NCBI GenBank assembly: GCA_040388395.1
Contig: JAZKBY010000014.1
Location: forward strand, 143,800-207,799
Reading direction: 5' to 3'
DNA length: 64,000 nt
Source of the DNA: Bacteroidota bacterium
GTDB taxonomy: Bacteria > Bacteroidota > Bacteroidia > Sphingobacteriales > Sphingobacteriaceae
The notes beneath the pieces are model-generated. The model was not told where the DNA came from. It did not search any database and saw nothing but the letters and a program-made list of their open reading frames with translations. How positions within the stretch are numbered: position 1 is the stretch's first letter; every line of letters starts with the position of its first letter. A program made the translations under genes and the position numbers. Below are positions 23,998 through 27,879 of this stretch, piece after piece.

Positions 23998-24039
23998 TTA
24001 ACGTAAATTTTATTAATTTTGTTTTATACCAACTATACT

Positions 24040-27000
24040 ATGGATAGCGTCGCTTATCAGTCTGCCAATAAAATACGTTTTGTTACCGCTGCTTCATTGT
24101 TTGACGGGCACGATGCTACCATAAACATTATGCGCCGCATACTGCAGGCCAGCGGCGCCGAGGTTATTCACCTGGGCCATAACCGCAGCGTTGACGAAGT
24201 AGTAAACTGCGCCATACAGGAAGATGTACAAGGCATAGCGCTAACCAGCTACCAGGGCGGGCACGTAGAGTATTTTAAGTATATGCACGACCTGCTTGCC
24301 GAACGCGGCGCGGGTCATATCAAAATATTTGGCGGCGGTGGCGGGGTATTCCTCCCGCACGAGATAAAAGAATTGCAGGATTACGGTATCAGTAAAATCT
24401 ACTCTCCCGACGATGGCCGTACGATGGGTCTGCAAGGCATGATAAATGACATGCTGAAACAGTGCGATTTTAAAACTGTAACCCACTTAAACGGTCAATT
24501 AAAACAAATAGGCGATAAAGACGCGCATGCGATAGCAAGCCTGATAACGCTGGCTGAGGCCGGCACTACAATACCTGCTACTGCACCTGCTACCAAAACT
24601 ATCCCCGTTATCGGCATAACCGGTACAGGAGGCTCTGGCAAATCATCATTGGTTGATGAACTGGTGCGCCGCTTTTTGATGGAGACGGATATTACGCTGG
24701 CTATTATTTCTGTCGACCCAAGCAAACGCAAAACAGGCGGTGCTTTATTGGGCGACAGGATAAGGATGAATGCTATTAATAGTCCGCGGGTTTATATGCG
24801 CAGCTTGGCTACGCGGCAGGCTAATCTGGCTTTGAGTAAACATGTGCAAGAGTCGGTTGATATTTGTAAGGCGGCGGGGTATGACCTGATCATCGTTGAA
24901 ACATCGGGCATTGGGCAGAGCGATACCATGATAACCGATTATTGCGACCTGTCGCTCTACGTAATGACCCCCGAATTTGGCGCGGCATCGCAATTAGAAA
25001 AAATTGATATGCTGGACTTCGCCGACATGGTGGCCCTTAACAAGTTTGATAAACGCGGCGCGTTAGATGCTATCCGCGATGTGCGCAAGCAATACAAACG
25101 CAACCATAAATTATTTGAGGCAAAGGATGCTGATCTGCCAATTTACGGTACCATGGCATCGCAGTTTAACGACCCTGGAATGAACGCCTTGTTTGCTGCG
25201 TTGGTGGATAAAGTGACGGTTAAAACTGGTGTGACAATAAAGTTAAATGATATTATCAGTTTAGGTGATAGCGAAGCGGAGAAAATTTACATCATCCCGC
25301 CCGAACGTACCCGTTACCTGGCAGAAATTGCCGAAAGCAGCGATGCTTATACCAAATGGGTAAATGAGCAATGTAAAATTGCGCAGCAGTTGTGGCAAGT
25401 TAAAGGGGTAATGGAAATTGTAGAGACGCAAAATGTTGCGTCTCTACGTGACATTGAAAAACACCTGGAGGAACAATTACATCCCGATTGTAAACGCCTG
25501 CTGGCTGATTGGCCCGCCACGGTTGAAAAATATAAGGCGCCTGATTTTATTTATAAAGTGCGCGATAAAGAGATCAAACAGCCGTTGTTTTATACCTCGT
25601 TATCGCAATTGCAGATCCCTAAAATATCCCTGCCTAAATATGAGGCATGGGGTGATATTTTACGCTGGCTGTTAACCGAGAATGTACCCGGAGAATTTCC
25701 ATATGCTGCGGGCGTGTTCCCGTTAAAACGTGAAGGCGAGGACCCAACCCGGATGTTTGCCGGCGAGGGCGGCCCGGAGCGGACAAACAAGCGTTTTCAT
25801 TATGTCTCGTTAGGCCAGCCGGCGCATAGGTTAAGTACCGCGTTTGATTCTGTTACGCTTTATGGCGAGGACCCTCATGTACGCCCTGATATCTATGGTA
25901 AAATAGGCAATGCCGGAGTAAGCATAGCCACGCTTGACGATGCCAAGAAACTCTATTCAGGTTTTGATCTATGCGACCCGTCAACATCGGTATCTATGAC
26001 CATAAACGGCCCCGCACCTATGCTACTTGGGTTTTTTATGAACGCGGCTATCGATCAGCAATGCGAAAAATATATCATTGAAAATAAGCTGGAACATTTG
26101 GTTGAGGCTAAGTTTAAGGAAGTTTATGATGATCGGGGGTTGGTGCGTCCGAAGTACGGCGTTGGCAACAAGCCTGGTAGCCTCACCCTAAATCCCTCTC
26201 CAAAGGAGAGGGACTTCGATGCAGGGAGAAAAAGATTTGGGTATGAAACGGCTAATTTGAAGCTATGGGAGACCTTAAAAGGAAATGCACGCGATAACAG
26301 GCAATACCCTACCGAAGCAGAAAATATTTTATGGCAGTTCCTTAGAAATAATCAAACTGGATTTAAGATCAGAAGGCAACATGCTATTGATGGTTATATT
26401 GCTGATTTCGTTTGCTTGCCAAAAGGATTGGTAATTGAAGTAGATGGAGGGTATCATAATATTACTACAGAACAGGATCAAGTAAGAACTACGGTTTTAA
26501 ATGGCGAAGGATTCTCGGTAATCCGCTTTACTAATGAGGAGGTGATAAGAGATCCTAAATCGGTAGTAAAAGAAATTACTAAAGCGCTTATTAATCAATC
26601 AGACAGGCAAGTCCTCTCCTTTGGAGAGGATTTAGGTGAGGCTAACGAAGCGGCTAATGAGACAAGTTTACCAACCGGAAATGATGGCTTAGGGCTAATG
26701 CTTCTTGGCCTAACCGGCGACCAGGTTTTACCAGCCGACATCTATCAAAAAATAAAAGCCTACGCTATTGCCACGGTACGCGGTACCGTGCAGGCTGATA
26801 TTTTGAAAGAAGACCAGGCGCAAAATACCTGCATCTTTAGCACCGAATTTGCCCTGCGCATGATGGGCGATATGCAACAATATTTTATCGACGAAAAGGT
26901 GCGTAATTTTTATTCGGTATCCATATCCGGCTACCATATTGCCGAGGCGGGAGCAAATCCGGTTACGCAGCTGGCGTTCACCTTATCAAACGGGTTTACT

Positions 27001-27879
27001 TATTTAGAGTATTACCTGAGTCGCGGGATGCATATTGATGATTTCGCGCCTAACCTGTCGTTCTTTTTCAGCAACGGGATAGATCCTGAATATTCGGTTA
27101 TCGGCCGTGTTGCACGTCGCATCTGGGCCAAAGCCATCAAGAATAAATATAAGGGTAATGACCGATCACAAAAACTGAAATATCATATCCAAACCAGCGG
27201 GAGGTCACTGCATGCGCAGGAGATTGATTTTAATGATATCCGTACCACACTGCAAGCTTTGTACGCTATTTATGATAATTGTAATTCGTTGCACACTAAC
27301 GCTTATGATGAGGCCATAACAACGCCAACCGAAGAATCGGTTCGCCGGGCAATGGCTATACAATTGATCATTAACCGCGAATTGGGATTAGCCAAAAATG
27401 AAAACCCTATCCAGGGCGCATTCATCATAGAAGAACTAACCGACCTTGTAGAGCAGGCGGTGATGACCGAGTTCAAAAACATCAATGATCGCGGCGGGGT
27501 TTTGGGCGCTATGGAAACCATGTATCAGCGAAGCAAGATCCAGGAAGAATCGTTGTATTACGAAACATTAAAACACAATGGCGAGTATCCGATAGTAGGC
27601 GTAAATACCTTCCTCAACAAAAAAGGATCGCCAACCATAACACCAGGTGAAGTGATCCGTGCTACCGAGGAAGAGAAACAATACCAGATAAGCGCATTAC
27701 ATGCCTTCCAGGAGCGTAATGCCGATATGATAGGCCAACTGTTGCAAAACCTGCAACACACCGCAATAGCCGGCGAAAACATCTTTGAAAGCCTGATGGA
27801 AGCATGTAAGTATTGCTCGCTGGGGCAAATCTCGCATGCGTTGTATGAGGTGGGCGGACAGTATAGGAGGAATATGTAA
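24040..27879 (+). CDS. icmF: Fused B12-dependent acyl-CoA mutase/MeaB GTPase (IcmF-type) carrying in-frame insertions
   Basis: N-terminal B12 domain (DGHD..IN), GTPase ([25 protein letters not shown]) and mutase domain ([47 protein letters not shown]). ATG at 24040. Confidence 0.93.
25420..25447. repeat. GTAG-type REP palindrome inserted in frame in icmF (encodes VETQNVASL)
   Basis: gtagagacgcaa-aatg-ttgcgtctctac, 12-bp perfect stem; sister copy at 30361-30385. Confidence 0.8.
26179..26643 (+). mobile_element. DUF559 endonuclease cassette with hairpin terminal inverted repeats, inserted in frame in icmF
   Basis: Left IR 26179-26216 agcctcaccctaaatccctctccaaaggagagggactt. Right IR 26609-26643 (reverse complement agcctcacctaaatcctctccaaaggagaggactt). 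Length 465 nt = 155 codons. Interior encodes T.AE..LW..LR..RRQ..YIADF..L.IEVDG.YH..D..R...L...G..V.RF.NEEV. Confidence 0.88.

Follow-up and report, generated by a model that had tools for sequence, protein, structure and literature searches.

A DUF559 nuclease cassette with TMECO-type terminal repeats in the icmF reading frame of a soil Mucilaginibacter: a probable mobile element

Background

The Rickettsia palindromic elements (RPEs) are palindromic sequences of about 150 bp, of the miniature inverted-repeat transposable element (MITE) type, that lie in frame in unrelated housekeeping genes, are translated there, and carry only a short conserved peptide open reading frame (ORF) (PMC10969869). 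In REPIN-RAYT systems, short palindromes are dispersed as inverted doublets, and copies of them also flank a low-copy enzyme gene, each enzyme lineage having its own repeat family (PMC3116915, PMC3337134). The TMECO (BoxC, PIT) repeats of Escherichia coli occur in two types that differ in the second loop, which is TTA in type A and CCG in type B, the latter reading CCCTCTCC…GGAGAGGG-CCG-GGGTGAGGG (Holder et al. 2015, PMC4666352, Table 1); paired copies are always one A plus one B, inverted (PMC4666352). Here these systems are compared with an insert at positions 26179-26643 of a 64,000-nucleotide stretch (referred to as the window) of contig JAZKBY010000014.1, assembly GCA_040388395.1, from a soil Mucilaginibacter, in which a DUF559 nuclease domain bounded by inverted hairpin repeats lies within icmF, the gene of a vitamin-B12 enzyme.

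DUF559 is a very common protein family to which no function has been assigned, and we know of no DUF559 protein with a demonstrated activity. TMECO/BoxC/PIT repeats have for more than twenty years been known only as unexplained unstable repeats. A survey of PD-(D/E)xK nucleases published in 2012 only groups DUF559 with Vsr and I-Bth0305I (PMC3424549), and a search of the literature found no paper on DUF559 as a mobile or in-frame element. Comparison of filled and empty icmF alleles, of the terminal repeats throughout the genome, and of related cassettes in other genes makes it very probable that the insert is a mobile cassette that remains in frame and unspliced.

Results and discussion

The cassette within icmF

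The icmF reading frame, insert included, extends from 24019 to 27879 on the forward strand (1286 aa, or 1279 aa from an ATG 7 codons in), and encodes a fused isobutyryl-CoA mutase in which Pfam recognizes B12-binding, MeaB GTPase and methylmalonyl-CoA-mutase domains. The insert, of which the first letters are AGCCTCACCCTAAATCCCTCTCCAAAGGAGAGGGACTT and the last AAGTCCTCTCCTTTGGAGAGGATTTAGGTGAGGCT, begins 2160 nt (720 codons) into this ORF and consists of 465 nt, or 155 stop-free codons, and contains no ATG. A DUF559 (PF04480) domain, a Vsr-like PD-(D/E)xK nuclease, occupies 26275-26589 on the forward strand (IcmF residues 753-857) with its motif DGYIADF...IEVDGGYH intact. Pfam gave E values of 3e-31 and 8e-33 for this domain, the latter at insert residues 33-137, with a score of 113 bits against a curated cut-off of 20.6 and covering positions 3-108 of the 109 in the profile; it also matches Protein Data Bank (PDB) entry 3hrl with E = 1e-19. 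Outside the 105-residue nuclease domain the insert has only 50 residues, and only the DUF559 and MTES_1575 profiles match it; no HUH (Y1) transposase profile of the IS200/IS605 type does so.

The insert is bounded by a left terminal inverted repeat of 38 nt (26179-26216, forward strand), translated into 13 residues and forming the C-rich strand of a TMECO-like motif, and by a right one of 35 nt (26609-26643, forward strand), translated into 12 residues; both are type A arms. The left-arm hairpin, CCCTCTCC-AAA-GGAGAGGG, lies at 26194-26212, and the right-arm hairpin at 26613-26629, within the G-rich motif CCTCTCC-TTT-GGAGAGG-ATTTA-GGTGAGG that ends at 26641. Except for three single-base indels (C, C, G), the left arm is the reverse complement of the right, and the cores CCTCTCC-AAA-GGAGAGG and CCTCTCC-TTT-GGAGAGG are 100% complementary. 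Each arm has a hairpin of 7-9 bp and folds as single-stranded DNA at z = -3.2, -2.4 and -3.3; the ViennaRNA folding covers the hairpin only, and triplex formation by the arms is predicted from the motif. The left arm also matched the whalefall-1 RNA motif of Rfam below threshold (26179-26214, reverse strand; 20.4 bits against a gathering score of 37), and the metagenomic whalefall-1 "RNA" family may be partly composed of such repeats.

Neither introns nor inteins were recognized: Pfam yields no Hint, intein or LAGLIDADG family at E <= 0.01, Rfam yields no intron family at E <= 1 across 25900-26900 and nothing above its threshold, and the junction residues (KPG followed by S on the N side, GEA followed by NEA on the C side) are not intein-like. 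The interior of the insert has a GC content of 0.378, compared with 0.46-0.47 in the flanks, and a GC content at third codon positions (GC3) of 0.29, compared with 0.50. The initial annotation, made from the letters of the window alone, had described a stop-free unit of exactly 465 nt on a codon boundary, repeats of 38 and 35 nt differing by three indels and each containing a hairpin, a complete nuclease domain, an AT-richer interior and an absence of intron and intein machinery, and in each of these respects it agrees with the results above.

The insertion lies in a region of IcmF that differs among lineages. IcmF matches that of Cupriavidus (PDB 4xc6) at E = 0 in two blocks, query residues 15-690 and 906-1286, and residues 691-905 have no counterpart there; thus the whole neighbourhood of the insertion appears to be a lineage-specific surface loop, in keeping with the tolerant loop that had been proposed. 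Between the invariant RPKY and the left repeat is a linker, GVGNKPG (26158-26178, forward strand), that is found neither in empty alleles nor in the closest filled allele (P0007); the right repeat is followed by another, NEAANETS (26644-26667, forward strand), that is absent from empty alleles and partly common with P0007 (NEATD). An AlphaFold2 model of the mutase half, from a 50-row alignment, had a mean predicted local distance difference test (pLDDT) score of 47, with 64-89 in the DUF559 part and less than 50 in the arm-encoded linkers, and was too poor to be used for geometry and fold search. The arm-encoded segments may, to judge from this model, be flexible linkers.

Filled, empty and remnant alleles

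The insert region was searched against 60 relatives, and 30 icmF loci from congeners and other families of the class were aligned, of which 12 are filled, three hold remnants and 15 are cleanly empty. Just 3-7 residues separate the invariant RPxY from LPxGNxGLG in the 15 empty loci, and the 12 filled loci, all from congeners, have an insert of 152-227 residues with a DUF559 core at exactly this site. Although the inserts vary in length, all filled alleles are in frame and stop-free. The remnants are a double hairpin of 25 residues, a collapsed repeat of 13 residues, and the residues GLTP. An assembly artefact was ruled out by the presence of the same architecture in 12 independent genomes and in dozens of metagenome contigs.

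On a tree of IcmF computed without the insert, the filled state requires at least 8 changes, and the genome of the window is sister to a clean-empty genome with 100% support. When the insert was deleted in silico, the closest public IcmF proteins (95-96% amino acid identity) were all empty and had the common linker HDSK. The tight clade around the allele of the window contains three filled alleles, the monophyly of which was rejected by the approximately unbiased (AU) test, with groups that had been picked after a first tree was seen (p-AU 0.0056); filled P0009 is sister to empty P0135 (support 97/99) and has a left arm of type B, and the alleles of the window and P0007 have a left arm of type A. 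The simplest reading is that close relatives acquired the insert at this site on two or more separate occasions, because independent deletions could not restore the same four codons. These alleles bear out three expectations of the initial annotation, namely the spacing of RPxY and LPxGNxGLG in homologues, the existence of empty sites in congeners and other families, and a patchy distribution of the insert that is incongruent with the host tree. Taken together, they identify 26179-26643, at the level of sequence comparison, as a mobile insertion and not an old domain.

At the icmF site, one of two near-identical hosts (94.9% DNA identity) has a doublet, without nuclease and from another repeat family, that is missing from the other; therefore this loop appears to have been hit repeatedly. 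Empty sites often contain a purine run (GGAGGAGA, GGGAGGGG) resembling the arm stems, which may be a target preference or a footprint.

Other irregularities were seen in icmF. The empty allele P0133 (L065) has GPFY in place of the otherwise invariant RPxY beside the site, a difference of 5 changes clustered in 15 nt, and a near-identical relative holds a doublet there; the cluster may be a scar of loss or conversion. Nuclease-less doublets are also found in frame at two further positions of IcmF, before the GTPase P-loop and after QVKGV, in other Mucilaginibacter (for example P0009, P0020, P0027 and P0036; L065/L066), and the IcmF of the window has neither.

A genome-wide family of arms

The arms are not confined to icmF. 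The 17-nt hairpin core is present in 27 copies in the genome of the window and the relaxed consensus CCTCNCC N3-8 GGNGAGG N3-7 GGNGAGG in 29, with none of either in the reversed controls; among 61 genomes, 41 contain the relaxed motif, at 0-63 copies per genome, and again the controls contain none. Most copies in the genome of the window form intergenic doublets of about 110 bp, about 10-11 in number, in which a type A arm (…CCTCTCC-AAA-GGAGAGG-ACTT) is followed by an AT-rich spacer and an inverted type B arm. Thus terminal inverted repeats and many dispersed copies are found with no transposase, as in elements of the MITE or RPE type.

Over 30 nt the right arm is identical to the consensus arm in 6 other species, and the arms of the 12 filled icmF genes have 0-2 mismatches in 30 nt to the A or B consensus. 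The arrangement of arms around one core varies by species: A/A, B/A, B/B, or a full doublet on each side. Because the arms stay near consensus despite saturated synonymous sites between species, and because their arrangements differ between species, they are constrained or homogenised as DNA, and behave as exchangeable modules rather than mere linkers.

A genome of another family (G059) contains 61 TMECO-like motifs (for example C38:9339-9698, C31:27339-27868 and C32:14520-15070), which, unlike the inverted doublets of the genome of the window, are often arranged as same-strand tandem arrays with a spacing of about 60-220 nt.

Partnership of nuclease and repeats

The genome of the window encodes 5 DUF559 genes, and all 5 are flanked on both sides by hairpin inverted repeats. 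By sequence these repeats fall into four families, which have 27, 44, 55 and 5 copies scattered through the genome; one family is common to the two sister DUF559 nucleases. Across the 61 genomes the counts of the triplex motif and of DUF559 are correlated (rho 0.68), as is their presence (odds ratio 8.8, p = 0.001), both figures being uncorrected for phylogeny. The median number of motifs, likewise uncorrected, is 32.5 in genomes with filled icmF and 5.5 in those with empty icmF, and the empty sister species (G029) has 0. The DUF559 gene of E. coli K-12, ycjD, likewise has a degenerate hairpin at its end, and TMECO #9 is located 170 nt downstream.

Several further arrangements of this kind were observed. 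The end of ycjD (NC_000913, about 1351180-1351430; L064 4180-4430) lies within a degenerate CCCTCTCCC...GAGGGGG hairpin, and a partial duplicate of its 3' end is found between ycjD and TMECO #9. A free-standing DUF559 gene (C11:205450-206200) is followed by more copies of its own hairpin family in a small array. Elsewhere in the genome, outside the window, a DUF559 cassette with CCCCCTAAAGGGGG hairpin arms is located between hisA and hisF (C1:289716-290864; L002 1456-2604), runs in frame into hisF, and provides the sole ATG of a DUF559-HisF fusion of 382 aa; several congeners have DUF559 matches within 330-415-aa open frames that may represent the same arrangement.

Selection on the nuclease

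The ratio of nonsynonymous to synonymous changes is 0.11-0.18 in the nuclease core and 0.03 in the flanks as dN/dS, and 0.29 and 0.08, respectively, as pN/pS. Within the motif D-F ... E-x-D-G ... H, residues F258, E268, D270, G271 and H274 are invariant in 50 IcmF alleles, and D257 is at least 90% conserved. The nuclease core is therefore under purifying selection at the amino acid level in the icmF frame. Because the insert has no ATG and no stop and selection acts on amino acids in the host frame, we infer that the cassette is translated as part of IcmF. Its GC3 is 0.23 below that of the surrounding icmF in 12 of 12 species and across every amino acid, which fits either continuing foreign input or freedom from the codon selection of the host gene. 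Judged by these patterns and by those of the previous sections, nuclease and arms are both constrained, the arms as members of a repeat family that extends through the genome.

Cassettes in other genes

A search restricted to large proteins (707-2250 aa) returned 1804 protein clusters with a similar DUF559 domain. The cassette hosts include IcmF (two sites), LeuRS (two sites), MetH (up to three cassettes in one protein), IleRS, MetRS, a MiaB-like enzyme and helicases, one of which has two cassettes with near-identical cores. About a third of the DUF559 matches in relatives are in stop-free frames of at least 300 aa. A tree of 162 cores shows strong grouping by host site, with 22 changes compared to 87.5 in shuffles, and the cassettes of LeuRS site 1 (support 96) and of the MiaB-like protein (support 97) represent supported switches from the IcmF-A clade; IcmF site B also nests in that clade, under branches with support of only 87-92. 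Arms of the type found in the window bound other elements of the same genome and also the DUF559 cassettes in LeuRS, IcmF site B and the MiaB-like protein, an occurrence for which the initial annotation had called for a search, and nuclease-less doublets are found at the same LeuRS and IcmF sites in other species. These comparisons show that the cassette lineage has moved to other genes as well.

Phage records contained no match to the cassette, and plasmid records contained 32 distant matches (less than 60% identity); no vector was identified among them. A methionine synthase, MetH (P0005, 1702 aa), contains three separate DUF559 cassettes, two of them mutually closest. In a metagenomic SF1 helicase-like protein (P0076) the cores at residues about 180-400 and 935-1145 are almost identical and the arms and linkers have diverged, which suggests a recent duplication or gene conversion.

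Proposed mechanism and evidence against it

The explanation that we favour, and consider probable as a whole, is that of a mobile DUF559 cassette with TMECO-type arms in a loop of IcmF. A gene for a nuclease of the Vsr fold, having neither start nor stop and lying between inverted repeats prone to hairpin and triplex formation, would have inserted into, and taken the place of, the linker of 3-4 residues that joins RPxY to LPxGNxGLG in a lineage-specific surface loop of IcmF. The cassette would be transcribed and translated with icmF and kept as an extra domain on flexible arm-encoded linkers, so that retention in IcmF would be the nuclease's only route of expression and IcmF would be kept working. 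The nuclease would cut DNA, and repair would copy in the cassette as well as the doublets that have its arms but lack the nuclease. The cut would be made in the cognate arms, in the manner of RAYT and REPINs, or else in empty target sites, as in homing. Homing is favoured by the fidelity of lineages to their sites and by the repeated gain, and recognition of the arms by the cognate arm families, the doublets in intergenic DNA and the ectopic jumps. Whether the nuclease itself drives the spread we regard as evenly balanced.

Several observations weigh against this explanation. The insert DNA of the window and that of P0007 are 85.3% identical, and the flanks about 85%; the insert is as diverged as its surroundings, which argues that after gain the cassette would be passed on vertically. 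The tree of the 12 inserts is star-like and unresolved, and does not reject host clades (p-AU 0.2-0.45). No target-site duplication was found in comparisons of filled and empty alleles at 85-95% DNA identity, a short linker being replaced instead. The nuclease-less doublets of another family at the same icmF site would permit the reuse of that site to be explained by a tolerated spot and not by nuclease specificity. No near-identical copies are present in the genome of the window, and the spacers of its doublets are unrelated, so that there is no sign of current activity in this genome. Five genomes have arms without DUF559 and 9 have DUF559 without this arm family. The selection of AU test groups and the uncorrected correlations, both mentioned above, count on the same side.

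Alternative explanations

One alternative, which we consider unlikely, is that the hairpin and triplex repeats are themselves active, through their own breaks with template switching or through a host enzyme, and that the DUF559 ORF is a trapped passenger. The arms outnumber DUF559 genes by about 10 to 1, persist in the 5 genomes lacking DUF559, can be exchanged around a single core, and form doublets without nuclease that occupy the icmF and LeuRS sites of the cassettes; the TMECO loci of E. coli show instability, and no enzyme has been assigned to them (PMC4666352). A passenger should decay, however, whereas this core is under purifying selection with a conserved catalytic motif. Moreover, the association of one arm family with each nuclease lineage within one genome is the pattern of an enzyme and its substrate, and the numbers of motifs and of DUF559 genes co-vary.

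To a comparable degree improbable is a homing endonuclease gene of the classical kind, but lacking any splicing element, which would cut empty icmF and be copied by repair between Mucilaginibacter strains, the arms being incidental linkers or recombination aids. Gain of the insert on two or more occasions at a single site of an ancestrally empty clade, the patchy distribution, the clustering of cores by host site, and the replacement of a short linker between highly conserved coding motifs would all be expected of such a gene, and homing endonucleases of the Vsr fold exist, I-Bth0305I (3r3p) being grouped with DUF559 (PMC3424549). On the other hand, the same cassette lineage is found at unrelated sites with no common flanking motif evident by eye, the arm DNA is conserved far beyond the needs of a linker, and doublets without nuclease are present in intergenic regions. 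A sliding-window scan for co-converted flanks detected no signal, at about 80% DNA identity, which is too diverged for such a test.

It is very improbable that the insert is an ancient domain fusion of benefit to the host that was passed down vertically and has disappeared on many occasions. In favour of this reading are the purifying selection that acts on the domain, the equal divergence of insert and flanks between the alleles of the window and P0007, and the failure of the insert tree to reject host clades, but each of the repeated losses would have had to yield the same HDSK or DGD linker, whereas the decay observed in the remnants is imprecise. The GC3 is unameliorated in every allele, the same cassette is found in unrelated enzymes, and the presence of arms in the genome tracks the filled state, the sister G029 having 0 copies. 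Equally remote is removal of the insert before the mature protein, by an intron, an intein or ribosomal bypass, since, even though pairing of the arms in mRNA could bring the flanks close to each other, there is no intron family and no Hint or intein domain, the junctions are not those of an intein, and RNA-level removal would not need the frame that is open in all listed filled alleles or the amino acid selection in the icmF frame.

Implications

A broader reading, which we advance tentatively and with more doubt than confidence, is that DUF559 cassettes are an unrecognised class of mobile element and the missing enzyme partner of the TMECO/BoxC triplex repeats. The Vsr-fold nuclease would then act on hairpin or triplex arms that would serve at once as recognition site, recombination substrate and translated linkers, and expression would be achieved by sitting unspliced in housekeeping reading frames. 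If this is true, DUF559 would acquire a function, the TMECO/BoxC/PIT repeats would acquire an enzyme partner, and nuclease genes would have, in addition to introns and inteins, a third means of residing in essential genes. Should the nuclease prove to recognise structured DNA or a defined site specifically, it would be a small (about 105 aa) new reagent.

IcmF, LeuRS, MetH, IleRS and other enzymes tolerate a folded domain of 150-230 residues in particular loops, which is useful for domain-insertion engineering. Such proteins are currently named simply "methylmalonyl-CoA mutase family protein", so annotations should be read with caution. The icmF site of Mucilaginibacter, with its natural series of filled, empty, remnant and doublet-only alleles, is suited to testing.

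Comparison with known systems

Inteins and introns with homing endonucleases also harbour a nuclease gene within a conserved gene, are patchily distributed and are gained repeatedly at a single site; unlike them, the cassette has no RNA or protein splicing machinery, and the insert apparently stays in the protein. The in-frame ShiLan insertions in phage DNA methylases are likewise stop-free, are not introns or inteins, and are associated with a homing nuclease, but their HNH nuclease is in another frame with its own start and stop, and the abstract on them does not mention terminal repeats (PMC11855218); here the nuclease is in the host frame. DUF559 belongs to the same fold group as I-Bth0305I and Vsr (PMC3424549, row 58: 1cw0, 3hrl, 3r3p), one member of which is a proven homing endonuclease; I-Bth0305I is intron-encoded, free-standing and of phage origin, and Vsr is a mismatch-repair nickase, unlike the in-frame cassette of icmF.

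The nuclease-less doublets of IcmF and LeuRS resemble RPEs, but between the arms of the cassette there is a 105-residue nuclease domain under selection, the arm sequences are unrelated to those of RPEs, and the hosts are free-living Bacteroidota. As in REPIN-RAYT systems, inverted doublets are dispersed in the genome, the low-copy enzyme gene lies between repeats of the same kind, and each enzyme lineage has a family of its own; the enzyme, however, is Vsr-like PD-(D/E)xK and not an HUH tyrosine transposase, and it can sit in frame inside genes, at many sites across genomes. The arms themselves are most like TMECO/BoxC/PIT repeats, having three blocks (CCCTCTCC, loop, GGAGAGGG, loop, GGGTGAGG) of almost the same sequence, two types of the second loop and inverted A+B pairs, although the published blocks are strictly 9 nt and those found here 7-8 nt (PMC4666352). 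In print TMECO repeats are extragenic, have no associated protein and are discussed as sources of instability (PMC4666352), whereas here they bound a nuclease gene and lie in a reading frame. The suggestion in the initial annotation of an undescribed class is thus in part superseded, in that the repeats were already known, and in part retained, in that their link to a nuclease and their life in frame appear to be unpublished. The element is a combination of known kinds, namely RPEs, REPIN-RAYT systems, TMECO repeats and in-frame insertion as in ShiLan.

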